The position numbers were made by a program, and so were the translations under genes. DNA of 64,000 nucleotides from Thainema sp. (GTDB taxonomy: Bacteria > Cyanobacteriota > Cyanobacteriia > Phormidesmidales > Phormidesmidaceae): NCBI GenBank assembly GCA_052168235.1, contig JBQLZK010000003.1, positions 96,001 through 160,000 of the forward strand. The letters are read 5' to 3'. Numbering within the stretch: the stretch's first letter is position 1; the number at the start of each line of letters is the position of its first letter. The notes beneath the pieces are model-generated. The model was not told the origin of the DNA. It saw nothing but the letters and a program-made list of their open reading frames with translations, and searched no databases. Below are positions 14,878-48,691 of the stretch, piece after piece.

Positions 14878-15678
14878 ATGGCTTCAAATCATCCAGCTCA
14901 ATCGTCATCTCAATCATCTAATCAACCATCCGGCGCGATCGCAACGTCTGCATCTTGTCAGCCAACAACCTCTCGATTTTCGCCGTGGCTGACTCCGACA
15001 GCCTACTGGTTGGGAAACAAGATTGTTTTCCCGGCCTATTTTGGCGACATTCGGGTGACAGGGCAGCACTATCTGCCGCGTCACGGCCCAGTGATTCTGG
15101 CTCCGCTGCATAAGTCCCGCTGGGATGCCCTGATGGTTCCCTATGCGGCGGGTCGAGCGGTGACGGGGCGCGATTTGCACTTTATGGTGACCGCCAATGA
15201 AGTTAAAGGACTACAGGGCTGGTTTATCCGCCGTCTGGGAGGATTTCCCATTGACCCGAACCGACCGGGAATCAGCAGTTTGCGTCACGGGATCGAACTG
15301 CTGGGCCAGGGTGAAATGATGGTAATTTTTCCGGAAGGCGGTATCTTCCGCGATCGCGAAGTTCACCCGTTAAAGCCAGGATTAGCGCGTCTAGCCCTCC
15401 AGGCTCAGTCTATCCAGACGGATCAAGACGTGCGGATTGTTCCCATTTCGATTGCTTACGATCCGCTAAATCCGCGCTGGGGCTGTGATGTCGAGGTCAA
15501 TATTGGCAAACCGCTGAACGTGCGGCACTACCAAACCGCTCCAACCAAGCAGGCCGCGCAGCAGTTGACTACCGACCTCAATCGCTCATTGTCCTATCTG
15601 CTGACGGGGAAACGCCAAATTGAGGCAGCAGACGACTCGCGGCGCGAATTGTTGCTCACGTCTTCTGGACATCGTTAG
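14878..15678 (+). CDS. plsC: 1-acyl-sn-glycerol-3-phosphate acyltransferase family protein
   Basis: HKSRWD (HX4D) and FPEGG motifs. Confidence 0.85.
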   Translation: MASNHPAQSSSQSSNQPSGAIATSASCQPTTSRFSPWLTPTAYWLGNKIVFPAYFGDIRVTGQHYLPRHGPVILAPLHKSRWDALMVPYAAGRAVTGRDLHFMVTANEVKGLQGWFIRRLGGFPIDPNRPGISSLRHGIELLGQGEMMVIFPEGGIFRDREVHPLKPGLARLALQAQSIQTDQDVRIVPISIAYDPLNPRWGCDVEVNIGKPLNVRHYQTAPTKQAAQQLTTDLNRSLSYLLTGKRQIEAADDSRRELLLTSSGHR

Positions 15679-15695
15679 GAACTCACCCAAGACCC

Positions 15696-15731
15696 AAAAA
15701 AGAGCCACCCCGTGCGAGGTGGCTCTTTTTT
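15696..15731. terminator. Bidirectional rho-independent terminator
   Basis: AAAAAAGAGCCACC...GGTGGCTCTTTTTT between convergent genes. Confidence 0.75.
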
Positions 15732-25637: not shown

Positions 25638-26049
25638 AGAGAGGCCAGCGGACTAGGTAACCAATGAACACAGTAGCAAATAGCTTAAATGACTCACCGA
25701 AATAATTCAGTACAGCAGAATGAATCTAGGAAATCTATGGATCAGGTAGATCAGGTAAGAATCAGGTCAACGGGTGGGTCATGTTAATGCGTTTGGGGGC
25801 ATTGCTAAGGGCACTGCTGCAATCTTATGTTTCATCTTAAGCATAGAAGCCGAGATCGAAAGCGGTTCTTATTAAGTCAGGGGGTTAGAGTTTATGAAAC
25901 GTCACATTTAGATCCTTTCAGGTCAATCATTACAGACGGATTCAGTATGAGTTGAATAGATTCGATAGAATGGTGACAGATCACAGGCTATTCTCGTTTA
26001 CTGGTTAGATTAGCTGACCATTTTGTTGCAGAAGGAGTCCAGCAGACTA

Positions 26050-26412
26050 ATGACACAAACCACTCAGCAAACGGCCCAACAGGGCATTCAGATGACGGAC
26101 GCGGCGCTGAAGCATGTTCTGGCTCTGAAGGAAAAGCAGGGTAACGATCAGCTTTGTTTGCGGGTTGGTGTCCGCCAAGGCGGTTGCTCTGGTATGTCCT
26201 ACATGATGGATTTTGAGGACATTAGCAATGCCCGTGATGATGATGAAGTTTACGATTATGAAGGCTTCAAGGTGATCTGCGATCGCAAAAGCCTGCTCTA
26301 CCTCTACGGCCTAGTTCTGGACTACAGCGACGCCCTGATCGGCGGTGGCTTCCAGTTCACCAACCCCAACGCCAACCAAACCTGCGGCTGCGGCAAGTCC
26401 TTCGGCGCTTAA
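26050..26412 (+). CDS. iscA: Iron-sulfur cluster assembly accessory protein (HesB/IscA/SufA)
   Basis: GGCSGMSY and [12 protein letters not shown]. Confidence 0.92.
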
Positions 26413-26424
26413 CGCCAAATCTTG

Positions 26425-26493
26425 GTAGGGGCGAATGGCCATTCGCCCTGAACCCATTAACATTACGTAAGGGCGAATGCCATTCGCCCCTAC
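26425..26493. repeat. Tandem pair of GTAG-family REP palindromes
   Basis: GTAGGGGCGAATGGCCATTCGCCC followed by GTAAGGGCGAATGCCATTCGCCCCTAC. Confidence 0.75.
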
Positions 26494-26511
26494 AGGTGTT
26501 TATTTTTGGCC

Positions 26512-26955
26512 TCAAATAATTCCGTCTAGGTCGATGCCAAAATCGGTTTCAGACTGTTGCTGCTGATTCATTAACATCAGCAAAATGTGGTTTAGGTAGC
26601 CATCAACGCCGCGCAGTTTCTCTTCTAAAATCTGCAGCCCACCGTTGGCATATTCCTGAAACAGATTGGCCCGCATCTGCTCATGGTCTTCGTCGTGCAT
26701 CAGGACTTTGGCATCTTGCTCATGAGCCACGGCAATCAGATCAATAATTTGAGCATTCTTGAACTGATTTAACGGAATCGGATCCGGTTCTTTTCGGGAT
26801 GTCTCGCCCAGCGGTAGACGCCGTTGATAATGAAACCCCACGACCGCCGCGAACGTAATCGCCTCAGCGTAGGTCTGAAAAACCTCGTTTCTGAGCCGTC
26901 TGACTAACTCAGCTTTTTCCGTGGCAACTTTAATTCGAATTGCAACCATGAGCAA
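26512..26955 (-). CDS. DNA phosphorothioation-associated protein 4 (PbeD-like)
   Basis: RIKVATEKAELV...FQTYAEAITFAA..G, EPDPI, FQEYANGGL; co-oriented downstream of the SMC-like ATPase. Confidence 0.75.
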   Translation of the reverse strand: MLMVAIRIKVATEKAELVRRLRNEVFQTYAEAITFAAVVGFHYQRRLPLGETSRKEPDPIPLNQFKNAQIIDLIAVAHEQDAKVLMHDEDHEQMRANLFQEYANGGLQILEEKLRGVDGYLNHILLMLMNQQQQSETDFGIDLDGII

Positions 26956-27009
26956 CAGGTAGTGTTTTGGTTGGGGGGCGAGGGAACAGAGAAGCTATTG
27001 AGTAAACGA

Positions 27010-27660
27010 CTATTGACTGAACAATCCAATTAGCCAGCGGTTAATCGCGCCATCATCTTCGGTCTGTCCCCGTTTGAGCGCTTCTTCTACCGTGATTAAT
27101 TCTAATCCTGGTAGGACTTGTGAAGACTGAATTTCACCACTGCGTCCATCTGCGACTTCAAATGCGATCGCGCTGCCGCTCGTGACATCAACCACCCAGT
27201 ATTCGCACACACCGAACCGCTCGTAGAGCAAACGCTTGCGGCCTAAGTCATCGCTGAGCGTAGTTGACGCAATCTCCACCACCAACTGGGGCACGCCATA
27301 GCGATCCACATCTAAGGGTTCTGATTCGCGCGGCGGCAACTGAAATGTTGATCCAATATAAAACGCAATATCGGGCTGTCCATCTCGCATTCCCGACTTG
27401 CGCAGGGTGGGATTGGTGAGTTCTACGATGCGGATATCTTTCAGCGTGGCAAACAGGCTGATTACATTGGACAAAATTGAATTTTCGCGCGCGTGCAGTG
27501 GCCCTAGTGCTGCCATTTCAATCCTCATCCAGCCATTGTCGTAATAGCATCGTCCAGGCTCATAGGCTGGATGGTCGGCCAAGCTCGCATACTGCTGCCA
27601 AGTCGCTTGTACCCAAGTATCTGTTTCAATTCTGGGTGATGACGGTACCGCTCGAACCAT
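27010..27660 (-). CDS. Uma2 family endonuclease
   Basis: QPDIAFYIG, PQLVVEIA, KRLLYERFGVCEYWVVD. Confidence 0.9.
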   Translation of the reverse strand: MVRAVPSSPRIETDTWVQATWQQYASLADHPAYEPGRCYYDNGWMRIEMAALGPLHARENSILSNVISLFATLKDIRIVELTNPTLRKSGMRDGQPDIAFYIGSTFQLPPRESEPLDVDRYGVPQLVVEIASTTLSDDLGRKRLLYERFGVCEYWVVDVTSGSAIAFEVADGRSGEIQSSQVLPGLELITVEEALKRGQTEDDGAINRWLIGLFSQ

Positions 27661-27721
27661 CTTGATGTCCTCAGCCTTAACTTAAATGTCGCTCAACTTG
27701 AGTTAAATACATTCGACATTG

Positions 27722-27787
27722 GTAGGGGCGGGTTTAGTAGGCCAATCTGCACCGAGTCATAGATTTGACAGCAAAACCCGCCCCTAC
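27722..27787. repeat. GTAG-family REP-like hairpin element
   Basis: GTAGGGGCGGGTTT...AAACCCGCCCCTAC. Confidence 0.7.
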
Positions 27788-27821
27788 AGTTTGCGAATTT
27801 ATCAAATCCATGATCCTTATC

Positions 27822-28478
27822 CTATTGCACACCCAAGAACTTATGCGTTTGCAGACTCACGCGCCACTGTGGATGTTTGAGAACGTAGTTAAACACAATG
27901 TCTTGGCTGTTGAGCGACTGCCATTCCGGTTGCAGCAGCTTGACTATAGCATCTGGAACATGAGCTGCCTGCTGTTCGGCCCACTCCAGATCTGATTCGT
28001 CGGCAATTACCACTTTCAGTTCATTGGCATGGGCATAGATGCTGGGATGGGGAGCCTTAGATCGCTTGGGCGAAAACGTCACCCAGTCAAACTTGCCGCT
28101 AAAGGGATGAGCGCCGGAGGTTTCTAAATTTACTTGTAGGTTAGCTGCCTTAAGCTGCCGAGTCAGTTCCGTTAAATCGTGCATCAGCGGTTCTCCGCCC
28201 GTGATGACGACAATTTGGGGATTGGCGGCACGGGCAGCGGTGACCAGAGCGGCGATCTCCTGACGGGGATGGCGCTTGGGATTCCAGGAGTGTTTGGTGT
28301 CGCACCAGGGACAGCCAACATCACAGCCCGCCAGTCGGATAAAAAAGGCATTGGTGCCAGCCCAAAAGCCCTCGCCTTGAATCGAATGAAAGGTTTCGAC
28401 AATCGGCAGATCCGTTGCGCTCACCTGACTGACTGGTCGATGAATTGTGTTTGGATTGATCATTTCAGCGTTAGTCAT
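27822..28478 (-). CDS. queE: 7-carboxy-7-deazaguanine synthase (radical SAM)
   Basis: ETFHSIQGEG, FIRLAGCDVGCPWCDT (CxxxCxxC), ITGGEP, SPK, SLQTHK. Confidence 0.95.
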   Translation of the reverse strand: MTNAEMINPNTIHRPVSQVSATDLPIVETFHSIQGEGFWAGTNAFFIRLAGCDVGCPWCDTKHSWNPKRHPRQEIAALVTAARAANPQIVVITGGEPLMHDLTELTRQLKAANLQVNLETSGAHPFSGKFDWVTFSPKRSKAPHPSIYAHANELKVVIADESDLEWAEQQAAHVPDAIVKLLQPEWQSLNSQDIVFNYVLKHPQWRVSLQTHKFLGVQ

Positions 28479-28860
28479 CTTCGTATTCCACCCAGGAGTT
28501 CGGCGTTTCGGAGACGCAAACCTTCAGCTTCACGCCTTCTGGGACTTCTTTCTTGGTGCGATCGTAAATGTATTGAGCAATCATTTCCGCCGTGGTTTCA
28601 TAGCCCTCCGGCAGCACTTCATTCAGCACGCAGTGATCGAGGCCGCCCTTGAGCATATCCCGCTTGGCCCAGCGCAGCGTCCGAAAATCGCAGACCATCA
28701 CCTCATGGGGACAGTATGCCGACGAATGCAGCCGATGCGATTCAGCTTCGATGCGGACTCGGTAGGTGTGACCGTGCATCCGCCCACAAGGCCCGTCGTA
28801 GTCGCGAATTGAATGGGCAGCATCAAACGTAAATTCAGTTGAGAGTTTCCACTTTGGCAT
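28471..28860 (-). CDS. queD: 6-carboxy-5,6,7,8-tetrahydropterin synthase
   Basis: FDAAH, CGRMHGHTY, LDH..LN, TAEMIA, VSET. Confidence 0.93.
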   Translation of the reverse strand: MPKWKLSTEFTFDAAHSIRDYDGPCGRMHGHTYRVRIEAESHRLHSSAYCPHEVMVCDFRTLRWAKRDMLKGGLDHCVLNEVLPEGYETTAEMIAQYIYDRTKKEVPEGVKLKVCVSETPNSWVEYEDD

Positions 28861-28875
28861 AAATTCCAGCCTATC

Positions 28876-30948
28876 CTATTCCCGATCAACCCTTAATACT
28901 TCTGTCCAGGTATGCTCATTGGCGCTTGGCTTCACCAGCGGATAGGTGCGCCCGTGCAGATGAATGTCATCCAGCTCGGCATCAGGTTTGGCCGTATAGT
29001 AAACCAGCACATATTCAGCTGCGATCGCACTATCCATTTCAGTTTCCACTTCACCGCGCCACTGGGTTTTGCTGACCAGGACGATCAGTTGATCGGCCAG
29101 TTGGGTGATTGCCTGGGCAATATTGCGCCGATTCAGTTCGTCCAAGCTGCCAAAGGGCGAATCCATCACCACTGGGAAGCCGCCGCTGTCTAATCCTAGC
29201 GCTGAATGCTTCTGACTCCAGTAGCGCACCCGCTCAATCACGCTGCCGATAAAGGCCAAGCTGAGGATTTGATTCTGCCCCGTAGAGGCGGCAACGGGCA
29301 CTCCTTCCGCCTGGGCCGGATCGACCAGCATCAGCTCGTAGTCCTCCGTCAGCTTCGGCAGGTAGGAGGTAAACGAAATCGACCGCCAAATTTCCCGCAC
29401 TTTCTCCTCCAGCTTGGCCCGAAAGGCCAAATCCACCCGCCGCGTCACTTCTTCCAGCCGCTCCACGGCATCTTGGGCGGCGGCAATTTGGCGCTTGACC
29501 CGAGCCTGCTCCTTATCTTTGGCCTTGTGCTCTTTAATTTGCTTATTCGCCGCCAGAATATCGCCATCTAGTCGCTGAATCGCTTCATCTACGCGGCTGT
29601 CCTCCCGATGCAGATCAATAATCCGCAGTTCAATATTTTCCAGCCGCTGCTCCATGCCCTGCACATTGACATCTTCATTGCCCTTGAGCTGCTCTCGAAT
29701 CGCCGCCAGCTTATCCTCGGTTGCGCCAATCTGCCGCCGCAGGTTGTCAATACTGGCCTGCTCCTGCTCAATCTCGGCCCAAAACTCCGGCACCTGCCGC
29801 TCCCAGGTTCTCACATCGCCATTGAGCGCCAGCACCGATTCTTCCACATCCTGTAGTCCCGCCCGATTCAGCCAGGTTTCCACCTGATGACGATGCTCGC
29901 TCTCCGGCGTCAGCGGCGCACCGCAGATACAGCGCTGATCATCCAGCAAATCCTGGACAAACTGCTGCTTAATCCCGGCGGGCAGTTCCCCCCGCTGGCG
30001 CAGGTCGTTGGCTAGGTTGCGAAACTGCGCGATCGCACTATCCAGAAACACCACATAGCCCCGCGCCGAAATCGTTCGCCGCAGCCGATCTTCACTGCGC
30101 TCCAGCTGGCGGGTCAGCTCATTCTGCTGACGGTCGAGGTCATCCCGTCGCCCCTGAATTTCGCCCACGCTGGCCAAATCGCGCAACTGGGCGCTGATGC
30201 GCTCCTTCAGTTCCTGCTGATTGTCCAGCTCAACCGCGATTTCCTCTTTGCGCTTCACCTGCTGATCGCGCTGCTCCTCCAGCAGGGCCTTGTCGGCCAG
30301 TAACCGCTGCGTTTCCGAATCGCCAATATCCCGCAGCTCCCGCTCCAGTGCCCGCCGCGCATCGTCCAAATGCCGCACCGAGCGCTCCAGCACTTCCACG
30401 CTCAGCAGCGTTTTAATCGCCCGCGCCATGTCGGCCTTGTTTTCCGACTTGACGATCCGCTCAATCCGCTCACCGTCAAAGAAAAAGTAGCGATGCAAAC
30501 TCTGCGGCAGCACCAAGCCAATCGCCGCTTCCACCTCATCTTCCGGCTGAGGCTTGCCGTTGATTGTCAGCTGTAGCGCACTTTCCGTCTCGGAAACTTC
30601 CCCATCCGCAGGTTTGCTTTTGGTCGATTTGGGCTTAACCTGCGATCGCAGTCTCTTGGCCTGGTACAGCTTGCCATTATGCTCAAACGCCACTTCCACC
30701 CAGCAGTCTACCGACTTGCCAGCCTTAGCCTCCGCCACAGCACGACTGTTTACCATTGGCCCCGGCGCAAAAGCGGCACTGGTTTCGCCATACAGCACCC
30801 AGGTAAACGCATTCAGCAGCGTCGTTTTGCCTGCCCCATTGTTACCGTGAATCACCGTCGTGCGGCGCTCCCCCTGATAGGCCAGTTCCAGTTCCACCTC
30901 TCCCCAAAACTGCCGAAAATTAAAGAGCTTGAGCGACATCAGCTTCAT
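28876..30948 (-). CDS. SMC/Rad50-like ATPase, DndD-related (PbeC-like)
   Basis: NFRQF, Walker A GNNGAGKTT, YFFFDGE, long coiled coil with CICG hook, signature ASTGQ, Walker B/D-loop VMDSPFGSLD. Confidence 0.85.
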   Translation of the reverse strand: MKLMSLKLFNFRQFWGEVELELAYQGERRTTVIHGNNGAGKTTLLNAFTWVLYGETSAAFAPGPMVNSRAVAEAKAGKSVDCWVEVAFEHNGKLYQAKRLRSQVKPKSTKSKPADGEVSETESALQLTINGKPQPEDEVEAAIGLVLPQSLHRYFFFDGERIERIVKSENKADMARAIKTLLSVEVLERSVRHLDDARRALERELRDIGDSETQRLLADKALLEEQRDQQVKRKEEIAVELDNQQELKERISAQLRDLASVGEIQGRRDDLDRQQNELTRQLERSEDRLRRTISARGYVVFLDSAIAQFRNLANDLRQRGELPAGIKQQFVQDLLDDQRCICGAPLTPESEHRHQVETWLNRAGLQDVEESVLALNGDVRTWERQVPEFWAEIEQEQASIDNLRRQIGATEDKLAAIREQLKGNEDVNVQGMEQRLENIELRIIDLHREDSRVDEAIQRLDGDILAANKQIKEHKAKDKEQARVKRQIAAAQDAVERLEEVTRRVDLAFRAKLEEKVREIWRSISFTSYLPKLTEDYELMLVDPAQAEGVPVAASTGQNQILSLAFIGSVIERVRYWSQKHSALGLDSGGFPVVMDSPFGSLDELNRRNIAQAITQLADQLIVLVSKTQWRGEVETEMDSAIAAEYVLVYYTAKPDAELDDIHLHGRTYPLVKPSANEHTWTEVLRVDRE

Positions 30949-31115
30949 CGAACCGTTTCCTTAATAATCCGCAGCACGTCGGCCTTGATGCGCGGTCGAT
31001 CAATCGCCAGATGCGCCTTCTCAAGCTGAATCACATCCCGAATGATTTTCTCCACCTTCGGCGGCGCAGTTTTGATCGGTTCTTCGATTTCGCTTTGGGG
31101 ATTCTTGGCAGACAT
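30945..31115 (-). CDS. Small helical protein translationally coupled to the ATPase (PbeB-like)
   Basis: 56-aa ORF KVEKIIRDVIQLEKAHL...RIKADVLRIIKE; its stop overlaps the ATPase start (ATGA). Confidence 0.65.
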   Translation of the reverse strand: MSAKNPQSEIEEPIKTAPPKVEKIIRDVIQLEKAHLAIDRPRIKADVLRIIKETVR

Positions 31116-31419
31116 GGAGTGAGGAGTAGTAGATGAGCAGTTTCGGTTGAGCAAACCATGAAACCCAGCACCAGCATAGGTTCCATTATTGTTAGCTTAT
31201 CCTACACACTCTAATTCAGTTTTACTAGTGCGATCGCACTTCCTAACTAGATACAAAGCGCGATCGCACCCACTCATCAACACAAAACCGATCACCTTCA
31301 ACTTACCTTCGACGAGGTCCAGGACGGTCGTTCGTCCTGGTCGAAGGGGTCTGGGGGCAATCGAAATGCCCCCAGTAGCCAGGTTCTACAACCCCTCAAC
31401 TATCATCAAACGCATCCCA

Positions 31420-31653
31420 TTACGGCATCGTTCGCTTCCGACTCATCACGCTGATGTACTCCCCACTGCGACCCGTCGGCAGCGGCTTACTCCAGGCAAT
31501 GCGATCGCAATAGCCCAGCGCATCCAAACGATGAATGGCATCGGTCAGTGCAGAGTAGTCGCCGAGCAGAATATGGCGAACGGTTTCCTGATTGAAGGTT
31601 GGCAAGCTGAAGGCGGGAGAGACAGTAGCCTCTCCGGTGGGTGATTGAAACAT
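31420..31653 (-). CDS. Small cyanobacterial hypothetical protein
   Basis: ETVRHILLG...IHRLDALGY...WSKPLPT...GEYISV; ATG at 31653 preceded by a GGAGA Shine-Dalgarno. Confidence 0.7.
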   Translation of the reverse strand: MFQSPTGEATVSPAFSLPTFNQETVRHILLGDYSALTDAIHRLDALGYCDRIAWSKPLPTGRSGEYISVMSRKRTMP

Positions 31654-31749
31654 ACGGGTGTCTCCGTTTTCAACTAAAGGAAAACGGGGAACTATCCAGA
31701 TCCCTATTTGATGCGGTAAAGGCAAGATAGCAGGACTAAAATGATCCCA

Positions 31750-31822
31750 GTCATCTCGACTTACCTAGGTTAAGTTGGGATGATCAGGAGATTTGGGAGG
31801 TGGCACCCTCTCAGATCTCCGC
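31750..31822 (+). ncRNA. Candidate cis-antisense small RNA (two 14-bp hairpins)
   Basis: Both stems pair fully on the + strand using G-U wobbles; TAAAAT at 31737-31742 just upstream. Confidence 0.4.
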
Positions 31823-32051
31823 CTAGAATCATTCCCCGCAAGACTAAAAGTATCAAGAAGCAGCTAGGCAGTTCAACCGTATTTATCTGTTTGTAAGGAT
31901 TAGGTTTGGAACTGCTGACTTGAAGCGGTTTTGTTTGGGTACATGGGAGTGCGATCGCACTTCCCCAAACTAAAACCGCGATCGCACCTTTCCAATCCAA
32001 AATCCAAAGGCGCAATTTGTATGATTGAGAGAGATCGCTGTAGGTTGCACC

Positions 32052-32636
32052 GTGATTGCCAATCCTCAATCTAATTACATGTCACCGCAAGACTATCTCG
32101 ACTGGGAAGCGACCCAAGAGATTAAGCACGCCTATGTTGATGGTGATGTGTTTGCCATGACGGGGGGCACAGTTGCCCATAACCTAATTGCTGGCAATCT
32201 GTTCGCGCTGCTGAAAGCCCATCTGCGGGGCAAGGGCTGTCGAGTTTTTATTGCTGATGTCAAAGTCGAAGTCTCTGAAACTGGACCCTATCACTATCCT
32301 GATGTCATGGTCAGTTGCGATCCGCGAGATAACAATGCTGTCAAGCTGATTCGCTATCCCTGCTTAATTGTCGAAGTGCTCTCGCCGAGTACCGCCAATT
32401 ACGACCGAGGAGATAAGTTTATGCACTATCGCCAAATTCCGACGGTGCAAGAGTATGTCCTGATTGATGCTCATCAAATCAGCGTTGACCGTTATCGCCG
32501 CCTTGCTCCAGATCACTGGGATTTACAAACCTACTCGGCAGATAGCGTGCTTGATTTGACTAGTGTAGACTGGCAAGAGTCGATTGCGCTCCTCTACGAA
32601 GATGTGCAGTTTGATCTAGCTGAAGAGTCTTTTTGA
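32052..32636 (+). CDS. Uma2 family endonuclease
   Basis: AMTGGT..HN, YPDVMV, PCLIVEVLSPST..YDRGDKF..Y, EYVLID. Confidence 0.92.
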   Translation: MIANPQSNYMSPQDYLDWEATQEIKHAYVDGDVFAMTGGTVAHNLIAGNLFALLKAHLRGKGCRVFIADVKVEVSETGPYHYPDVMVSCDPRDNNAVKLIRYPCLIVEVLSPSTANYDRGDKFMHYRQIPTVQEYVLIDAHQISVDRYRRLAPDHWDLQTYSADSVLDLTSVDWQESIALLYEDVQFDLAEESF

Positions 32637-32649
32637 GCAGTGTTCTATC

Positions 32650-32682
32650 GTCGGTTGGCGTTGAGCAACGCGAAACCCAACA
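32650..32682 (+). repeat. REP-like repeat (GTxGGTTG...TTGAGC...CGAAACCCAAC type)
   Basis: GTCGGTTGGCGTTGAGCAACGCGAAACCCAAC; an inverted related copy lies at 35909-35940. Confidence 0.6.
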
Positions 32683-32839
32683 TTATTGATGGGAATGTAG
32701 TGTGAATGCGATCGCACTTTACCCTTCATCTCATCACTCAAAAGCGCGATCGCACGTCTTCCCCATTCTCATCACTGATCGCACTTCCCCCCACAGATCG
32801 CACTTTCCAAAACTAAACTCACCAATCCAAAATCTAAAA

Positions 32840-34267
32840 TCACGAAGAGGTTTTGATAGTTTGAACAATTCTCTGAATCAGCGGATGATCGCTGAGGATA
32901 GATTCTTGCCCGCTGCTGATCACCTGTTGTACAAAAAACTGCAAGTTCTCCAGCACTGTCCTTGTATGAGGATGTGCGTCTCCCAGCAGCTTAGAAAATA
33001 GCTCAACAGCCTTCACATAGAGCGGTTCGGCTTCCTCATATCTCCCTTGCGACCGATAGAGTCCGGCCAGATTGTTCAAACTGCTCGCCACATCTGGATG
33101 CTGCTCGCCCAGCAGCTGTTTACTCATCGCCAAGGCTTCCACATAGAGCGGTTCGGCTTCCTCATATCTTCCTTGCGACCGATAGAGTCCGGCCAGATTG
33201 TTCAAACTGCTCGCCACATCTGGATGCTGCTCGCCCAGCAGCTGTTTCCTCATCGCCAAGGCTTCCACATAGAGCGGTTCGGCTTCCTCATATCTCCCTT
33301 GCGACCGATAGAGTCCGGCCAGATTGTTCAAACTGCTCGCCACATCTGGATGCTGCTCGCCCAGCAGCTGTTTACTCATCGCCAAGGCTTCCACATAGAG
33401 CGGTTCGGCTTGCGCATATCGCCCTTGCGACTTGTAGAGATAAGCTAACCAATGTAAGCAATCTGCAATTTGAACAGATTCGGTTTCCTGTTGACGAAAT
33501 AGGTTTAGGGCTTTTTGAAAATAGTTAATGGCACGTTGTTGCTCAGCCCGATATTCCTGCGCGCCCCCTTCAATCGTGCGCCAACCGAGAATTTTACCCG
33601 CTTCAAAATAGAGCGAAGCCAGCAGTGGATCATGGGGATTGTTCGTTTCAGTTTGTTCAATTAGCCGTTCCAGATCACTGAGCGGAATTGTCGTTTCCTC
33701 ATCGCCATCCGGCAGTTCCAGCAGCGGTCGAAACGTCTCTAAGTCCTGTGTCGGCACCACCAAGCTACGGCGAGAAGCAAACCGAAAGACGCTTTTGCGC
33801 CAGCTCCAGAAGTCGGGAGCTTTGCGGCTAATTTCCGTGAGGACTTGACTGGTCAGCCAGAGAACAATTGGATAGGGATACTGCCGCAGGGCTTCTCGCG
33901 TCCACTGGAGATAGCCCAGAAATTCCTCCTGCTGAGACTTTTCCGCCCCAAACCGTAGTCGAAACAGTCGATTTGCACCTAAAACGGTAAAAACAGCCAG
34001 TCCGCCCTGCTGGAGATAGTCATCTGCGGCTACTTGGTCAGCTAGGGTGCTCTTGATACTGGGTTTGTCAGGCTGCACTGTGACCCGATATGGTTTGAAC
34101 TGCGGCGCAACCTCCGCTTCGTAGCGGTCAATCAGTTCTGCTTGCAAACTGGCATCATCACACACCGCCAGCAGCAGACTTAATTGGCGATCGCTGTTTT
34201 CAATCGCCACCACCAGGTCATAAAAAGCCGTTTCGTTTTGAGCGTGGATGTCGTCAAGTTGAACCAT
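32840..34267 (-). CDS. Tetratricopeptide repeat protein with an N-terminal degenerate ATPase-like domain
   Basis: 42-aa TPRs HPDVASSLNNLAGLYRSQGRYEEAEPLY; N-terminal LQWTREAL..PIVLW..APDFWSW; start overlaps the stop of the upstream ATPase. Confidence 0.88.
   Translation of the reverse strand: MVQLDDIHAQNETAFYDLVVAIENSDRQLSLLLAVCDDASLQAELIDRYEAEVAPQFKPYRVTVQPDKPSIKSTLADQVAADDYLQQGGLAVFTVLGANRLFRLRFGAEKSQQEEFLGYLQWTREALRQYPYPIVLWLTSQVLTEISRKAPDFWSWRKSVFRFASRRSLVVPTQDLETFRPLLELPDGDEETTIPLSDLERLIEQTETNNPHDPLLASLYFEAGKILGWRTIEGGAQEYRAEQQRAINYFQKALNLFRQQETESVQIADCLHWLAYLYKSQGRYAQAEPLYVEALAMSKQLLGEQHPDVASSLNNLAGLYRSQGRYEEAEPLYVEALAMRKQLLGEQHPDVASSLNNLAGLYRSQGRYEEAEPLYVEALAMSKQLLGEQHPDVASSLNNLAGLYRSQGRYEEAEPLYVKAVELFSKLLGDAHPHTRTVLENLQFFVQQVISSGQESILSDHPLIQRIVQTIKTSS
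33014..33430. repeat. 126-bp near-identical tandem repeats (three full copies plus a partial) encoding TPRs
   Basis: CACATAGAGCGGTTCGGCT recurs at 33014, 33140, 33266 and 33392. Confidence 0.92.
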
Positions 34268-35579
34268 TGACTAAGCCTTTGCGCCGCAGCAAATCCGTCA
34301 CAATCGGGTGCGTGTCGTACCAAATTTCGGCATTGCGATACTCCAGCGTATGCAGAGCATGTAATAAGTCTAAAAACTTTTGCTCCTTCGGATCATCCGG
34401 TTCAAATTTTTCGTAAACGTTAACCAAGATCTCATAGTCGTTTTTGCCCAGTGGCGTTTCGAAATCGAGCCGTAGATCTTTAATGGCTTCATCCAGAACC
34501 GCTTGGTCGATCCGAATATCGGCAAGCTCTGCCTGCCCTTCTGCCATTGCTAACCGAATTTGCCGCAGACAGATTCGGCAGCAGGTGTTCGCCAAGCGAA
34601 TTAGTTCCCGCAACACACCACCGCTATTGGTCACAATCTGCCGAGCAAGGCCCGATTCCAGCAAATCAGCCGAGATTCGTTTTTCTAGCACATCGCAAAG
34701 GGTCTGAATGGCACTGTCGATGGGCTGTGGATCGGGTTTACGCCGTTCTCCTTTTGCAAACAGCTTGGTGACAGGCATTTCCACGATCTGATTATTCGTC
34801 TCTGTGATCATCATCGCTCGCAGCGTCGCCTCCCGCAGTGCCGCCACTGGAGTTGTAAAGATGATCTGAAATCCAGGTAGGAACAGCGCTTTGATATTTT
34901 GCTTATAAACCTGTTCGACCACGGCTAAATCGATCTTGTCAAGGTCGTCAATAATCACCAGAACTTTCTTGTTGCTAGCGGCCTGAATCGCTGCCGCAAT
35001 CACGTTGATCTGGGCAACCAGTTCTGTAATTTTGCGCTCGAATTCCTGCTTCAGTTCGTTGCGAATCGTCGCTTCTGATTTGAGCTTGCCTTGAATGAGC
35101 TGAAACAGATTAAATCCAACCGAGACTTCAGCGATCGCAGGTGTTTCGATTTCGGTACGAGTTTTAGTCGCAAACCATTTGTAAAACGCTGTTCGAGTTG
35201 TTTCTGGAATTTGAATTCGCTGATGCTCCGCTTCTTGCATCAGGTTAACTGCGATCGCAAATAGAATCGTAATGTGATTCACATCCGACATTTCAATCGT
35301 GTCGGAGATAGAGAAAAACACCACAAACCGATTGCGATCGCGACATTGCTGCCCAAATTTAGCCAGTAGCGTTGACTTGCCGCAGCCGCGATGTCCCGCA
35401 AAGATGATCTTGCCGCTGTCGGTATCGTCGTCTTCTACCAGTTGCTCCAGTTCCAGTAGCACATGCTTGCCATATTCCACCCGAAACCGCTCCATCTCTG
35501 TCTGATGAATCAGCGGTAGCAAATCTAGATTGCGATACGCTTCACGAAATGCCTCTAAGCGTTCATTGGACGGGGACAT
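34254..35579 (-). CDS. P-loop NTPase (AAA/KAP/STAND-like)
   Basis: Walker A GHRGCGKST, Walker B VIIDDLDK, SGGVLRELIR, C-terminal LEY.N...WYDTHP. Confidence 0.88.
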   Translation of the reverse strand: MSPSNERLEAFREAYRNLDLLPLIHQTEMERFRVEYGKHVLLELEQLVEDDDTDSGKIIFAGHRGCGKSTLLAKFGQQCRDRNRFVVFFSISDTIEMSDVNHITILFAIAVNLMQEAEHQRIQIPETTRTAFYKWFATKTRTEIETPAIAEVSVGFNLFQLIQGKLKSEATIRNELKQEFERKITELVAQINVIAAAIQAASNKKVLVIIDDLDKIDLAVVEQVYKQNIKALFLPGFQIIFTTPVAALREATLRAMMITETNNQIVEMPVTKLFAKGERRKPDPQPIDSAIQTLCDVLEKRISADLLESGLARQIVTNSGGVLRELIRLANTCCRICLRQIRLAMAEGQAELADIRIDQAVLDEAIKDLRLDFETPLGKNDYEILVNVYEKFEPDDPKEQKFLDLLHALHTLEYRNAEIWYDTHPIVTDLLRRKGLVNGST

Positions 35580-35621
35580 GGCTCAAAAATCACGACGGCT
35601 CACTGATTGTAATCTTACTTG

Positions 35622-35873
35622 CTGTAGCGGCTTCCGAGATCCCTGCAATCATTTCCAAGCAGTCTGTTGTTGTTACAGAGAAGTCCGTTATCGCAACAGA
35701 CTTCCCTGTTGTCGTTCCCGACAAGTCTGCAACGCTTCCCGACAAGTCTGTTCTTGTTGCAGAGAAGTCTGCAACGCCTCCCGACAAGTCTGCAACCCTA
35801 ACAGACTTCCCTGTTGTTGCTCCCGACAAGTCTGCAACGCTTCCCGACATCTCTGCAACGCTTTTCAGGTGGA
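35622..35873. repeat. Degenerate 21-nt tandem array (12 units)
   Basis: Units such as CTGCAACGCTTCCCGACAAGT, CTGTTGTTGCTCCCGACAAGT and CTGTTCTTGTTGCAGAGAAGT in exact 21-nt register. Confidence 0.85.
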
Positions 35874-35908
35874 TGTCGAGCTGGCGAGACACAACAACTT
35901 TGGTTCAT

Positions 35909-35940
35909 CGTCGGGTTTCGCATTGCTCAATCCAACCTAC
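35909..35940 (-). repeat. REP-like repeat, inverted relative to 32650-32682
   Basis: Minus strand reads GTAGGTTGGATTGAGCAATGCGAAACCCGACG. Confidence 0.6.
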
Positions 35941-36186
35941 ATCGCTAAACCCCAAAACCACAATTGCTACATCCCAAAATATTCCTTCTCCGTATTCAAA
36001 CCAGCTCAACGCCCCATATTCAACAAACCTTTGCAATATTACCAACCCCGATTCTGTACTCCTCCAGACGGCATTTCCAACCCCCAAGGCTACCTTAGAG
36101 AAATCACATCGCCAAAGTCAGCCAGCCCTTGAACTGACTGGCAAACAGCGACTGTGACACAACCTATCCATCAGGAACCATCTACT

Positions 36187-36573
36187 ATGAGTTACCAAAA
36201 ACGTAAATCCACCCGCATCCTCGAACGGGCCGAAATGCGCGCCGCCGGACTCGCCGCCATCGACCCCGATCTCGACCTCGGTGACGGTCGCACCCTCAGC
36301 CACCTGAACGAGCAAATCGCCCAGCTACAGGCCCAAATCAACACCTACAACACCGCCCTCGCCGAAATCGACACCATCCGCAGCAGCATCCAAGACCGCG
36401 AGAAAAAACTCAGCGACCTCTCCGCCCAAATGCTGCTCGGCGTCGCCTTCCAATACGGCAAAGACAGCCCCGAATATCAGATGGCAGGCGGTGTAAAAAG
36501 TAGCGATCGCAAACGCCGCAACCCCACACCCCGCCCCAAACCCGACAACACAACCCTACCCGCAGCAATGTAA
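36187..36573 (+). CDS. Hypothetical helical/coiled-coil protein
   Basis: KRKSTRILERAE.RAAGL.AIDP.LDLG...YN...GVAFQYGKDSPEYQMAGG; ATG at 36187. Confidence 0.75.
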   Translation: MSYQKRKSTRILERAEMRAAGLAAIDPDLDLGDGRTLSHLNEQIAQLQAQINTYNTALAEIDTIRSSIQDREKKLSDLSAQMLLGVAFQYGKDSPEYQMAGGVKSSDRKRRNPTPRPKPDNTTLPAAM

Positions 36574-36578
36574 AGTAC

Positions 36579-36606
36579 GTAGGGGCGAATGGCCATTCGC
36601 CCCTAC
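36579..36606. repeat. Perfect GTAG-family REP palindrome
   Basis: GTAGGGGCGAATGGCCATTCGCCCCTAC between convergent stop codons. Confidence 0.8.
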
Positions 36607-36613
36607 CAGGTAA

Positions 36614-38791
36614 TCACAAATCCAACAACCCATACCGCTCCTGCAACCCATACAGCCGCTGCCGCACCTCGCCCGCATTCGTCGCCAAATCGGCAAACTC
36701 CGCCACCCGAATCAGCTCCTTACGCAGCAGATTACGCTCCGTCGCCAGCGTCTTGCGATCAAAATCCGGCGGCACCACAATCATGTCAAACAGTTCTGCC
36801 CGATCCTTACCCGCAGCCGGACGCAGAATCCGGCCTCGACGCTGGACAAACTGACGCGGATTGCTGCTGCTGGCCAGAATAATTGCCGTGCGCGTCGCCG
36901 GAATATCCACCCCTTCATCCAAACAGCGAATCGCCACCACTCCCGGCAGCAGTCCCGCCGCAAACGTATAGCGCAGATCCTCCCGCTCATCCAGCGTCGT
37001 CTCCGCCGTGTAGGACTTGGCCTGAAAACCCAGTTCCTGGTTCAAAATCTGCATCACCGCATCCAATTGGCGCACGCTGTCATCGGTTGCCTCGTCGCGC
37101 ACCGCCCCATCGTCGCAGTAGAACAGCGTATGGGTCGTCTCTAGCCGCTGCCGCATCAACTCACGCAGCACGTCCAGCTTATTCACCGCCGAGCCGAGCA
37201 GGTGCGATCGCTGTGTGACCAGAGCCGTCAGCTTGGCGCTTTCCTCCGCGTCATCCATCGCCAGCAGTTGCATAATCCGCATGGTCAGCTTCTTATACTG
37301 CTCCGCTTCCCGGTCAGTCAGCTCCACCAGCAGCGGATGGTAGGAATAGGGCACCAGCGCCCCGGCTGCGATCGCATCTTTCAGCGTAAATTCGGGTTGA
37401 ATCACCGAGCCGAAATAGTCGAACAGCCGCTCGGTGCCTTCTTCGTCAAAGTAGCGCTCCGGCGTAGCCGACAGAGCCAAACGAAAGGGAACATGGGCAG
37501 GTAAGCTCTGCTCCAGATGCTGGGCACCCAGGTTATGCGCTTCGTCGCCGATAATTAGCGTCCGTTTCGGAAAGAAATCCAGCACCGCCTGGAAGCTGTC
37601 GCCCCGCAGCGTCGAGTTGGTGGTGATCACCGCGATAAAGTCTCGCTGCTGCCGCTTCAGGGCAATCAGTTGCGCTTGCAGTTCCGTCTGCCAGGTGTAG
37701 GCGCGGTCGAAGGCCAGAATCGGCTCAAGCTGAAACTGCCGACAGTTGGCGGCCCACTGCGTCACCAAATGACGATAGGGACAAATGATGATCAGCGCTT
37801 GCAGAGGCTGCTGCTGGTCGGCACTTTTGCGGTAGAGAGCAGCTGCGATCGCAAGTGCCGTGATCGTCTTGCCGCTGCCCGTGGCCATTTTCAGCGTGCC
37901 GCGTCCTTTATTTTGAAACCAATTTGCGATCGCGTCTTCTTGGTACCAGCGCAGATTCAGGTTCGGTGGCAGCAGGGGGAAGTGAGGTTCGGGCGGTAGC
38001 AGGTCAAGGGATAGGGGTTGATGGTTGATGGTGGATTGGTCGGGATTGGTGGCGGTTTTAGGGTTGGATTGGGTCGTGGTGCGGGACTTTTGCTCAACGG
38101 GTTCCTTGTGGGGTGGTCGGTTGGGGCACAACTTTAGCAGCGAACGCGATACCGCTTCTGGAAAGGCGAGAACTTCTACATTTTGGGTGCGGTTATGCCA
38201 TAAATCCTGAAAATGCTGGACCTTTCGAAAGGCTCGCTGCTGCACACCCTTGTCCCAGGACGGATAGACTTCAATGCATTCAAAGTTGTCGATCAGGGCG
38301 CTGGCGCTTTCGTTGGCTGAGCCAGTGAAGGCAATTACGTTGCCCGCTTCGTCGGCAAAGATGCCCAGCTTCTCGTGATAAATACCCTGCTGACGCAGCG
38401 TTTTGGGCACCGCTAGTTTAATTTCCAGCAGTCCCTGACTGAGCAGCCAGGTCAGTGCCGCCAGCCGATCCTGCACCAGTTGCGGCAGTTCTGTCTCCAG
38501 TTCACGCAGCAGCGCCGTGGTGAACACTTGCTCCCGCTGCTCCAGTCCCTGCTCAATCGCCTGGACATCTTCAGCAGATAGCTTGGGCGACGTAACCAGC
38601 CGCATCTGCCCACCGGAACGGATAAACGCGGTCAATCCTGCCGCCACGGCTGACATGGAGGTGCTGGAGAAAAAGCCAACGGCTCGGTCATAAACCGTCG
38701 CTCGCTCCAGACAGGGAATGTAGAAGTCCTGAATCAGATCATCGCGATCGCTACGATATTCATCCTGAATCGTTAGATCTTGCAGACTCAA
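36614..38791 (-). CDS. PLD nuclease + SF2 (DEAH) helicase, DNA phosphorothioation system restriction enzyme family (PbeA-like)
   Basis: YDRAVGFFSS, PLD-like YHEKLGIFAD...GSAN, Walker A MATGSGKT, DEAH, LSATPER, LDEGVDIP, QRRGRILR; TTG start preceded by AAGGAG. Confidence 0.88.
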   Translation of the reverse strand: MSLQDLTIQDEYRSDRDDLIQDFYIPCLERATVYDRAVGFFSSTSMSAVAAGLTAFIRSGGQMRLVTSPKLSAEDVQAIEQGLEQREQVFTTALLRELETELPQLVQDRLAALTWLLSQGLLEIKLAVPKTLRQQGIYHEKLGIFADEAGNVIAFTGSANESASALIDNFECIEVYPSWDKGVQQRAFRKVQHFQDLWHNRTQNVEVLAFPEAVSRSLLKLCPNRPPHKEPVEQKSRTTTQSNPKTATNPDQSTINHQPLSLDLLPPEPHFPLLPPNLNLRWYQEDAIANWFQNKGRGTLKMATGSGKTITALAIAAALYRKSADQQQPLQALIIICPYRHLVTQWAANCRQFQLEPILAFDRAYTWQTELQAQLIALKRQQRDFIAVITTNSTLRGDSFQAVLDFFPKRTLIIGDEAHNLGAQHLEQSLPAHVPFRLALSATPERYFDEEGTERLFDYFGSVIQPEFTLKDAIAAGALVPYSYHPLLVELTDREAEQYKKLTMRIMQLLAMDDAEESAKLTALVTQRSHLLGSAVNKLDVLRELMRQRLETTHTLFYCDDGAVRDEATDDSVRQLDAVMQILNQELGFQAKSYTAETTLDEREDLRYTFAAGLLPGVVAIRCLDEGVDIPATRTAIILASSSNPRQFVQRRGRILRPAAGKDRAELFDMIVVPPDFDRKTLATERNLLRKELIRVAEFADLATNAGEVRQRLYGLQERYGLLDL

Positions 38792-38873
38792 GTCAAACTC
38801 CTTTTATCCGCCTAAAACAGCCCATCAATATTAAAATCTATAAAGCAAATCAGTAAAAAAGAGAAAAGCCAGC

Positions 38874-40343
38874 ATGCGAGTTGCGATCGTTGGAGCCGGA
38901 TTAGCGGGTCTGTCTGCCGCCGTTGAACTAGTCGATGCCGGACATGAGGTGGAAATATTTGAATCTCGTCCCTTTGTTGGCGGCAAAGTGGGCAGTTGGG
39001 TCGATGGCGATGGCAACCATATTGAAATGGGTTTGCATGTCTTTTTCGGCTGCTACTACAATCTGTTTGCCCTAATGCAAAAGATCGGCACGTTCGACTC
39101 CCTGCTGCAAAAAGATCACGTTCACACCTTCGTGAATCGGGGTGGACAAACCGGGGCTTTAGACTTCCGCTTCATCACAGGCGCACCGTTCAACGGGTTA
39201 AAGGCATTTTTCACCACCAATCAGCTTTCGCTCCAGGATAAGCTGCAAAACTCGCTAGCCCTCGGTACCAGTCCTCTAGTGCGCGGCCTGATTGACTTCA
39301 ACGGCGCGATGAAGACGATTCGCAATCTGGACGACATCAGCTTTGCCGACTGGTTCCGCAGCCACGGCGGTTCCAACGGCAGCCTCAAGCGCATGTGGAA
39401 TCCAATTGCCTACGCGCTGGGCTTTATCGATACTGAAAATATTTCGGCTCGCTGTATGCTGACCATCTTCCAGTTCTTCGCCGCCAAGACCGAGGCGTCG
39501 GTGCTGCGGATGCTAGAAGGATCGCCCTACGAGTATATTCACAAACCGATTCTGGACTACCTGGCCGAACGGGGTGGCCAAGTTCATACCCGTCGCGGCG
39601 TTCGCGAGATTACCTTCGCCGAAGAGAACGGCCAAACTCGCGTCACCGGACTGCAAGTTGCCAACGGCGATCGCACTGAAACAATCACTGCCGATGCTTA
39701 CCTCTGTGCCTGCGATGTGCCCGGCGTGCAGCGTCTCCTGCCTAACACTTGGCGCAAGTGGCCGCAGTTCGACAATATTTACAAGCTGGAAGCCGTCCCC
39801 GTTGCCACGGTTCAGCTCCGCTTCGATGGCTGGGTGACAGAGCTGCAGAACGACGAAAAGCGCCGTCAGCTCGGACAAGCCGCAGGGTTAGACAACTTAC
39901 TCTATACGCCCGATGCCGATTTCTCCTGCTTTGCCGATCTGGCATTGACCAGTCCCAGCGACTACTACCGGGAAGGCCAGGGTTCCCTCATGCAGCTGGT
40001 GCTGACTCCTGGCGATCCGTTTATTAAAGAAAGCAACGATGCGATCGCACAGCACGTGCTCAAACAGGTACATGATCTATTCCCGTCGTCGCGCGATCTG
40101 AACATGACCTGGTACAGTGTGGTCAAGCTGGCCCAGTCCCTGTACCGTGAAGCACCCGGTATGGAACCCTATCGTCCGGCCCAAAAAACACCAGTTGATA
40201 ACTTTTTCCTAGCCGGAAGCTACACACAGCAGGACTACATCGATAGTATGGAAGGAGCGGTGATCTCTGGCAAACAGGCCGCCTACGTCATGCTGGAGCC
40301 GACAGGCTACCGTGTCCAAGGCGCAGGTTTATTCAAGTACTAA
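38874..40343 (+). CDS. zds: 9,9'-di-cis-zeta-carotene desaturase
   Basis: [53 protein letters not shown]. Confidence 0.95.
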
Positions 40344-47470: not shown

Positions 47471-48691
47471 ATGCTGCCAACGGATTTGCTGAGCTATCGG
47501 CTGAGCGGTGATTCCCTAATTCCGAAAAAGCTGTCGATTTGCGATCGCAACTTAGAGATGGCGGTTGATCTGATCACCCTGTTTCAGGACTGCCAGGGCG
47601 ACACCCAGGGCAATTTAGATCGACGGTTGCAAGATTTAGAAGGTGAAGATACCGATTACCGAATTAGGCGGGGACTGGCTCACATTCTCCGCAGCAGCTT
47701 CAGCACGTTTGACATCGTTAGTCCCTTGGAACCGCAGGATCTGCGGCAGCGGGTGTTTAGCTTAGCGGCGCAGACGGTGCCGAGTATGCCCAATGCTCAA
47801 GTGCATTTGACCAAGCTAGCCGATCAGCTCAGTGTAGAGTGCGATCGCGAAGTGTCGGTCAAAGACATCCAGCACGGACTGTATGCTGACCTGCAAGAAA
47901 ACCGGATCTTGACCGAGTTTGATGCGCCGACTCCGGAAGCCTTGCTGCATCGCTACAACCTGTCGCAGGTGCAGGGTGTGTTCTACAAAGCCAGCCACAT
48001 CACGCTCAACGTCCACCGCAACGATCCGGGTGAGTACAAGCTGCTGTTTCGCTATCTCAAGTTTTTTCGGCTGATGACCTATATTGAGGGCGATGCCGAT
48101 CAGGGCTTTACGATTACGATTGACGGCCCCACTAGTTTATTCAAAGCCAGCACCCGCTACGGATTGGATATTGCTAAGCTGCTGCCTGCCTTGCTACACG
48201 TGACGCGCTGGAGTCTGCGGGCGACGCTACAGGTGAAGGATTCCTACAGTAAAACGCCGAAGCGCAAGCAGTTTATGCTGGATTCCGAACGCTGTGACTT
48301 GGTGACGCACTATCCGCCGGGTAAGCCCTACGACAGCATGCTAGAGGAGTCGTTTGCCAACCGCTGGGATCAGCTCAGCAGCGACTGGCGGCTGGAACGC
48401 GAGGTGGATCTCATCCCGATTCCCGGCAGCGTGATGATTCCCGATTTCCGGCTGGTGCACGAGGATGGCCGCACCTATTTGCTGGAAATTGTCGGCTACT
48501 GGCGACCGGAGTATCTGCGGAAAAAGTTCTCCCAGGTGCGACAGTCGGGCTGTCCGAATCTCATCCTGGCGGTTTCAGAGCGGCTGAATTTGGAGAAGGC
48601 CGGGGTGAATATTGCTAATACGCCTGCACGAGTCGTGTGGTTCAAAAACAAGCTCGCACCTAAAGATGTTCTTAAAATCTTGGAGAATTAA
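47471..48691 (+). CDS. DUF790 family protein (Bax1-like PD-(D/E)xK nuclease)
   Basis: LYADL, RYNLSQVQG, IDGPTSLF..STRYG, MIPDF...LEIVGYWRPEYL. Confidence 0.88.
   Translation: MLPTDLLSYRLSGDSLIPKKLSICDRNLEMAVDLITLFQDCQGDTQGNLDRRLQDLEGEDTDYRIRRGLAHILRSSFSTFDIVSPLEPQDLRQRVFSLAAQTVPSMPNAQVHLTKLADQLSVECDREVSVKDIQHGLYADLQENRILTEFDAPTPEALLHRYNLSQVQGVFYKASHITLNVHRNDPGEYKLLFRYLKFFRLMTYIEGDADQGFTITIDGPTSLFKASTRYGLDIAKLLPALLHVTRWSLRATLQVKDSYSKTPKRKQFMLDSERCDLVTHYPPGKPYDSMLEESFANRWDQLSSDWRLEREVDLIPIPGSVMIPDFRLVHEDGRTYLLEIVGYWRPEYLRKKFSQVRQSGCPNLILAVSERLNLEKAGVNIANTPARVVWFKNKLAPKDVLKILEN

Follow-up and report, generated by a model that had tools for sequence, protein, structure and literature searches.

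The stretch of Thainema sp. DNA analyzed here (64,000 nt, positions 96,001 to 160,000 of contig JBQLZK010000003.1; the whole stretch is called the window below) carries a PbeABCD-type anti-phage module that has no dnd phosphorothioation genes beside it and has two genes of the 7-deazaguanine pathway, queD and queE, lying inside it. The question raised by this arrangement is whether the module is an effector linked to deazaguanine chemistry rather than, or in addition to, phosphorothioate (PT), as a preliminary description of the locus proposed. We conclude that the locus is quite probably a complete cyanobacterial-type PbeABCD module accompanied by a Uma2-family nuclease gene, which lies in the chromosome without adjoining dnd genes and is split at two variable junctions, and in which queD and queE are passengers belonging to the tRNA pathway. 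The genes in question are as follows.

36614-38791, minus strand: pbeA, PLD/HKD nuclease domain fused to a superfamily 2 (SF2) DEAH helicase (PADLOC, TIGR04095, motifs)
30945-31154, minus strand: pbeB, 56 aa from the ATG at 31115 or 69 aa from a TTG (position, size, tblastn)
28876-30948, minus strand: pbeC, CxC-type ABC ATPase and DndD paralog (PADLOC PbeC, Walker A, CIC)
28471-28860, minus strand: queD, 6-carboxytetrahydropterin synthase (PF01242), whose start is 15 nt past the pbeC stop
27822-28478, minus strand: queE, 7-carboxy-7-deazaguanine synthase of the radical SAM type (TIGR04322 the best match), overlapping queD by 8 nt
27010-27660, minus strand: Uma2a, Uma2-family PD-(D/E)xK endonuclease (PF05685, 89.6 bits)
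26512-26955, minus strand: pbeD, DndE-like small protein (dnd_assoc_4; TIGR04062)

The four co-oriented minus-strand open reading frames (ORFs) that the preliminary description assigned to PbeABCD are all present in the order it gave, and the composition it claimed stands as well, with PbeA and PbeC matching PADLOC models, PbeD passing TIGR04062, and PbeB fitting by its position, size, and tblastn matches. PbeA matches the PADLOC PbeA model end to end (821.7 bits, residues 3-709) and scores 599.9 bits against TIGR04095 ("DNA phosphorothioation system restriction enzyme"), just below the cut-off of 600. Its PLD domain is weak in Pfam (PLDc_2, 22.4 bits; cut-off 27), ResIII and Helicase_C also match, and the sequence motifs HEK..D..GSAN, GSGKT, and DEAH are present. 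PbeC is likewise matched end to end by its PADLOC model (809.5 bits) and has the Walker A sequence GNNGAGKT; it is distinct from DndD, whose model TIGR03185 gives 139.7 bits, under the cut-off of 245.85, and its CxC motif, C340-I-C342, is unchanged across 20 of 20 aligned homologs. Profiles from Pfam, NCBIfam, and PADLOC (the last also at E<=10) all fail to match the putative PbeB. In systems of this type PbeB is small and evolves fast, and its gene comes immediately before pbeC; the gene here shares 4 nt with the start of pbeC, and tblastn matches to it lie just upstream of PbeC in 66 of 80 loci from relatives.

PbeD scores 121.1 bits against TIGR04062 ("DNA phosphorothioation-associated protein 4"; cut-off 74.25). 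It has no relevant PADLOC match (E<=10), a PbeD profile gave no matches among PDB sequences, and local hhalign comparison of cyanobacterial PbeD with nine cyanobacterial DndE proteins, made with shallow alignments, showed no similarity; a fold comparison was used instead. When an AlphaFold2 model of PbeD (pLDDT 86.7, 37-sequence alignment) was compared with the PDB by Foldseek, ranks 1-10 and 14 were all DndE (4lrv, 7x4e, 5wtu), with probabilities of 0.84-0.98 and TM scores of 0.53-0.65 on the target, but with E values of about 0.13. This fold match agrees with the statement, in the accessible text of PMC10853773, that PbeD is a DndE cognate.

As far as the accessible parts of the two papers describe them, the haloarchaeal DndCDEA-PbeABCD system (PMC6459918) and the CxC ABC-ATPase/DndE-cognate system (PMC10853773) agree with the window module in their four proteins and in gene order. 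The window module shares with haloarchaeal Pbe an HKD plus SF2 PbeA, a small putative PbeB that overlaps PbeC, a CxC PbeC, and a DndE-like PbeD of about 150 aa. Unlike the haloarchaeal system, it has no dndCDEA phosphorothioation genes coupled to it within the 64 kb, its genes are split, queD-queE and a STAND/TPR gene pair are inserted, and a Uma2 gene lies between PbeC and PbeD. The pbe genes do not form a single contiguous four-gene operon: pbeA and pbeC are 5.7 kb apart, and pbeC and pbeD are 1.9 kb apart. Gaps comparable to these are seen in a minority of relatives.

The absence of dnd genes from the 64 kb, also claimed earlier, was confirmed in two ways. Scans with profile hidden Markov models (HMMs) from Pfam and NCBIfam (18 + 41 + 19 window ORFs, with other ORFs at least 100 aa long) gave no match to DndA-E, cysteine desulfurase, DGQHR, or DNA methyltransferase among the scanned ORFs, and tblastn of the relatives' DndB, C, D, and E, HNH, and EEP (endonuclease/exonuclease/phosphatase-family) proteins against the window found only the PbeC/DndD paralogy and no dnd remnants. 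The relatives were collected by scanning one genome per species with a PbeC alignment; 547 were confirmed and the best 80 loci were kept, of which 65 have cyanobacterial titles and 15 are titled "uncultured bacterium". Their ORFs were clustered and the cluster representatives named, which gave the usual layout PbeA-PbeB-PbeC-(Uma2a)-PbeD-(EEP)-DndB-like-DndB-(HNH)-DndC-DndD-DndE. In 63 of the loci the sequence reaches 8 kb or more beyond PbeC; a dnd gene is present in 42 of these and absent in 21, so that the state without dnd in cis is a minority but a common one.

This state has been described before. In the available text of Xiong et al. (2019; PMC6459918), 320 of 553 pbeAC pairs are solitary, having no PT modification module within 10 kb, as is the case here, and the authors suggest that they pair with other modifications; in that of PMC10853773 (Aravind group), numerous taxa are said to have CxC systems that are independent of DndD systems. 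The published solitary loci are often near DNA methyltransferases (155 of 320), a difference from the window, where none was found in the scanned ORFs. Solitary Pbe and the proposal that it pairs with another modification are, within these two sources, both already published; the module is a known system in its known solitary state, and its novelty is low.

The alternative that survives best is that PT is supplied by dndBCDE or ssp genes clustered in another part of the genome, and that the module reads it as in archaeal DndCDEA-PbeABCD. The 42 loci with adjoining dnd genes indicate that the lineage is normally PT-coupled, and the contig is 200,676 nt long, of which the window takes up only 64 kb; nothing in the window favors it, however, no dnd remnants lie near the module, and solitary systems are frequent. 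We regard PT supplied in trans as a tentative possibility, somewhat on the unlikely side.

What, then, are queD and queE doing in the module? They do lie inside it, between pbeC and pbeD, as first described. QueD matches PF01242 (105.3 bits) and falls under the equivalog cut-off of TIGR03367 (75.3 bits; cut-off 89.25); QueE has TIGR04322 as its best NCBIfam match, also under the equivalog cut-off (139.6 bits; cut-off 200), and matches Radical_SAM and Fer4_12. The radical-SAM CX3CX2C motif of QueE is intact (CDVGCPWC at residue 52), as is the QueD ORF. The preliminary description had proposed counting pbe-que co-localization across cyanobacteria, and the count went against it: QueD lies next to PbeC in none of the 80 loci and QueE in one, by tblastn (E<1) and by profile HMMs on six-frame translations, the local QueD and QueE HMMs each having been built from 120 homologs. 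Likewise, of 21 plasmid Pbe loci found, 5 were inspected, and none of these has a que gene annotated within 8-10 kb on either side; the 21 PbeC plasmid records share no accession with the QueE plasmid records among the 60 listed of 151.

The two groups of genes also differ in their conservation. The best 120 homologs of QueD are 75-91% identical to it and those of QueE 63-90% (its own entry 100%), both coming from many cyanobacterial genera where named, whereas the identity of PbeC homologs drops from one cluster at 96% to 67% and then to about 46-50%. Thus, the que genes are conserved in the manner of core genes and the pbe genes are not. Orthology with the single-copy cyanobacterial housekeeping genes would fit the high similarity of 120 of 120 best matches. 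Adjacent queD and queE genes are annotated in unrelated genera (Deinococcus, Paracoccus, Bradyrhizobium, Halorubrum, and others). The window pair resembles such a queuosine operon unit in its overlap, its intact radical-SAM motif, and its high identity among cyanobacteria; it is unlike an ordinary queD-queE pair in lying inside a defense module, 15 nt behind pbeC, and in its scores under the equivalog cut-offs.

A known link between deazaguanine and DNA is the Dpd island (dpdA-K), in which, according to the available text of the review PMC5699537, dpdA is the signature gene of deazaguanine in DNA and DpdB is DndB-like. That island, like the window, has preQ0-pathway genes beside helicase and PLD-type defense genes. 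The window differs in having no dpdA, dpdB/C, or queC, only the housekeeping-type queD and queE: there is no HMM match (Pfam, NCBIfam) to tRNA-guanine transglycosylase (TGT)/DpdA, QueC, or FolE among the scanned window ORFs, none in the window to DndB/ParB-like (DpdB) or DUF328 proteins, and no Dpd match in PADLOC among 15 proteins scanned. Rfam (at gathering thresholds) and ARAGORN each gave zero matches over the whole window, which therefore has no preQ1 riboswitch and no tRNA integration site. One further approach to QueD-QueE adjacency, through matching longest-contig sizes in the match lists, was discarded, since the three equal sizes seen by eye (29077, 3950, and 2263) are about what chance would give by a rough estimate.

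Most likely, then, queD and queE are the organism's ordinary queuosine (tRNA) pathway pair and not a DNA-modification arm, and QueD and QueE most likely make 7-carboxy-7-deazaguanine (CDG) for tRNA queuosine. The pair appears to have been inserted or captured in the module and would now be read through from pbeBC. The interpretation offered in the preliminary description therefore divides: a PbeABCD-type module without dnd genes in the window is what is found, and the tie to deazaguanine chemistry is not supported, given the near absence of QueD and QueE beside PbeC in relatives, their mainstream orthologs, the lack of dpdA, queC, and folE in the window, and the insertion-prone site in which they lie.

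This last property is plain in the relatives. The PbeA-PbeB and PbeC-PbeD junctions are insertion-prone and variable: the gap from PbeC to PbeD ranges from 29 to 6234 nt (57 loci) and that from PbeA to PbeC from 175 to 6835 nt (68 loci). The ORFs in these gaps (133 representatives) include MNT/HEPN, MazF, PIN, HicA, Uma2, NB-ARC/NACHT NTPases, IS605/TnpB, an integrase, type IIG restriction-modification (RM), and GmrSD, and metabolic genes occur among them too (RPE65, acyltransferase, RidA, and DJ-1). Neither QueC, FolE, and TGT nor any other queuosine-pathway gene is among the 133 representatives. The STAND/TPR and queDE insertions of the window fit this pattern of junction insertion.

Several observations weigh against regarding queDE as mere passengers. 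The 15-nt pbeC-queD spacing and the 8-nt queD/queE overlap are operon-like, and the first strong hairpin follows only after queE, which suggests that pbeB-pbeC-queD-queE is probably one transcript; judged from this arrangement of the sequence, queDE and pbeBC probably share a transcript, which is what one would expect of a functional partner. The inverted repeats and palindromes at issue are these (none is assigned to a strand).

27722-27787: inverted repeat with perfect 14-bp arms, GTAGGGGCGGGTTT / AAACCCGCCCCTAC, separated by 38 nt (3 matches, where 0.22 would be expected)
36579-36606: 28-nt perfect palindrome with GTAGGGGCGAATGGC arms, directly after the pbeA stop; likely a hairpin or transcript end
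26425-26493: clustered palindromic arms of the GTAGGGGCGAATGGC type, just past the stop of pbeD (repeat search)

The first of these sits in the 161-nt gap after queE and is a likely transcript end. In the second, the GTAGGGGCGAATGGC arms are at 36579-36593 (plus) and 36592-36606 (minus), with 6 matches in the window against 0.14 expected. To the same side of the balance belongs a locus on a contig of a Symploca metagenome-assembled genome (L040, the one QueE case among the 80), whose PbeC is 47% identical to that of the window and in which the gene next to follow PbeC, in the same orientation, encodes QueE. This QueE is 43% identical to the window QueE and matches TIGR04322 with 131.5 bits; its nearest clusters in the ESM Atlas are named QueE and are mostly cyanobacterial, which we take as a lead only. 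By our estimate, two QueE adjacencies in 81 loci exceed a naive random-neighbor expectation, and we leave them as an unexplained coincidence. The copy number of queDE and the status of dnd, dpdA, and queC were, moreover, judged from the 64-kb window only, and GC and GC3 fail to set queDE apart from the pbe or the core genes. (As a signal of origin, GC content, overall and at codon positions 1-3, was dropped for the same reason: queDE, pbe, and core genes overlap.)

The GTAGGGGCGAATGGC- and GTAGGGGCGGGTTT-arm palindromes are two related types, far above chance expectation, with further positions at 23806 and 10264. They may be hairpins resembling repetitive extragenic palindromes or miniature inverted-repeat transposable elements (REP/MITE-like), placed at transcript ends or recombination sites. 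A promoter and terminator consensus scan of 26000-39200 was uninformative (5 promoter-like matches against 9.0 expected and 15 terminator-like against 13.4).

The hairpins bear on a second alternative, that the module is a decaying remnant in which Pbe has become inactive after the loss or separation of dnd and has been broken by insertions, with queDE using the old pbeBC promoter. The module would fall into at least three transcription units bounded by hairpins, its usual dnd neighbors are gone without remnants, and partial modules without PbeD or PbeA exist in relatives (for example L012, L032, L034, L040, L047, and L063); Xiong et al. also argue, in the part of PMC6459918 that is available, that solitary Pbe may be inactive, being PT-dependent. 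Such decay is nonetheless doubtful here, in that none of the four pbe ORFs is truncated, nor is Uma2a, and their catalytic motifs are intact; the profiles of PbeA and PbeC are matched over their whole length, and gaps just as large are found in relatives that keep dnd, such as L025.

The remaining alternative is functional recruitment, in which queDE in the pbeBC operon would supply a 7-deazaguanine precursor (CDG, or preQ0 with a QueC encoded elsewhere) that either marks host DNA in place of PT or acts as a defense signal, inhibitor, or metabolite. If so, Pbe-type restriction would be extended to a base modification, and the operon-like spacing, the intact QueE motifs and QueD ORF, the lack of dnd in cis, and the proposal by the authors of PMC6459918, in its available text, that solitary Pbe pairs with other modifications would all fit; a QueE after PbeC in the distantly related L040 would then be a recurrent association and not a coincidence. 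This seems to us quite improbable, since PbeC has no QueD neighbor in any of the 80 loci and a QueE neighbor in only one, that sole case looks like a breakpoint against the native chromosome (L040 has no QueD, no PbeA or PbeD in its 13-kb locus, a 540-nt non-coding gap between PbeC and QueE, and era as the next gene on the other strand), DpdA/TGT, DpdB/C, QueC, and FolE were not found in the 64 kb, QueD and QueE are mainstream cyanobacterial orthologs and not a diverged module-specific lineage, and no literature was found that ties Pbe to QueD or QueE, neither of which occurs in the available text of PMC10853773.

Returning to the solitary module with tRNA-pathway passengers, we turn to Uma2a. 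In 30 of the 80 loci PbeC is followed in the same orientation, at a distance of no more than 1.4 kb, by a Uma2a ortholog, and one is also present on a Pseudanabaena plasmid. Loci noted for the ortholog include L005, L007, L009, L014, and L081 (12069-12299). Pairwise identities of Uma2a and PbeC are correlated (Spearman rho 0.83, 30 sequences), as are those of PbeD and PbeC (0.71, 57 sequences), the pairs in both cases not being independent. Four plasmid Pbe loci from outside the cyanobacteria (Ruegeria, Halorhabdus, Rhizobium, and Lactiplantibacillus) do not have the gene, and in them PbeD abuts PbeC. From these sequence comparisons, Uma2a looks like a lineage-specific fifth component of cyanobacterial Pbe modules. 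"Uma2" and "DUF820" have no occurrence in the main text of PMC10853773, and the main texts of the two key papers name no such gene.

The module forms part of a 12.3-kb block of minus-strand genes between iscA and zds, with one plus-strand gene, Uma2b, inside it; two small ORFs of the block lie between Uma2b and pbeB. The surroundings are those of a cyanobacterial chromosome, with petA/petC, a cyanobacterial group-2 sigma factor, zeta-carotene desaturase, and CofH encoded in the window. The other genes of the block and its flanks are listed here.

26023-26412, plus strand: iscA/hesB-type Fe-S assembly gene, core-genome flank (TIGR00049, 127.5 bits)
31420-31725, minus strand: small ORF of 101 aa (tblastn homologs in the closest relatives)
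32025-32636, plus strand: Uma2b, second Uma2-family endonuclease gene (PF05685, 133.4 bits)
32840-34267, minus strand: TPR-repeat protein (TPR_12, 234.9 bits), overlapping the NTPase ORF by 14 nt
34254-35579, minus strand: KAP/STAND-type P-loop NTPase inserted between pbeA and pbeB (KAP_NTPase, NPHP3_N, and AAA_22 matches)
38874-40343, plus strand: zeta-carotene desaturase gene (zds), core-genome flank (TIGR02732, 904 bits)

The NTPase and TPR ORFs, which overlap at 34254-34267, may be a coupled pair or a single STAND NTPase-TPR gene split by a frameshift. Within the TPR gene (33100-33368), an identical 17-nt stem-loop-like string occurs three times (at 33100, 33226, and 33352) with a period of 126 nt, reflecting tandem TPR units that are nearly identical at the DNA level. 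The window NTPase has no ortholog in the 80 loci. STAND NTPases (KAP/NB-ARC/NACHT) recur between PbeA and PbeB in unrelated loci (L025 4837-6228, L026 3260-7225, and L027 6443-7546), and the same gap holds a type IIG RM gene in L061 and a GmrSD gene in L036, so this junction seems to collect other defense genes. Between the NTPase gene and pbeA, about 1 kb (35580-36613) contains only unsupported plus-strand ORFs of 202 and 139 aa without family matches, and blastx and tblastx of 35560-36620 against all ORFs and DNA of the 80 loci found no homolog.

The 101-aa ORF has no family match, and in the closest relatives its homologs are found in the interval from PbeD to DndC (by tblastn, L006 at 15408-15701 with E 2e-9, L002 at about 16637-16891, L008 at about 16112-16297, and L011 at about 16510-16671); it may be a leftover of the dnd side of an ancestral island. 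On that side of the relatives' loci, an EEP gene lies between PbeD and DndB-like in 21 of 80 (for example L044 13595-14668) and an HNH gene between DndB and DndC in 17 of 80, and neither adjoins the window module. In some Microcoleus and Phormidium loci the first Pbe set is followed in tandem by another, divergent Pbe-like set (L051 14062-18037, L052 14701-19496, and L079 17467-19401), with PbeA 39-51%, PbeC 23-29%, and PbeD 28% identical. Elsewhere in the window, a DUF790/Bax1-like nuclease gene (47471-48691; Pfam, 519.5 bits) lies beside cofH. The usual partner of such nucleases is an XPB-type helicase, and none is adjacent here.

How would such a module work? Most likely it acts as proposed for Pbe/CxC systems (PMC10853773): the PbeC-PbeD pair would scan DNA, and PbeA would be the helicase-nuclease effector that translocates and cleaves, or blocks replication; the small PbeB would have a regulatory role, and Uma2a may be a nuclease with an accessory or back-up function. 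Any self-mark would have to be owed to dnd genes outside the window; otherwise the module acts without a mark. In the genetics reported in the available text of PMC6459918, three genes (pbeB, pbeC, and pbeD) prove essential, and pbeA does so in part.

If it is indeed a solitary module with passenger que genes, the locus is mostly ordinary, being one more solitary Pbe/CxC module of a kind counted in hundreds. What should be useful to specialists is the co-inherited Uma2 (PD-(D/E)xK) gene between pbeC and pbeD in cyanobacterial Pbe modules. The inner junctions would be landing sites for defense genes (STAND NTPases, toxin-antitoxin, and RM) as well as for stray metabolic genes, and because they accept unrelated genes, caution is called for in inferring function from adjacency inside Pbe modules.

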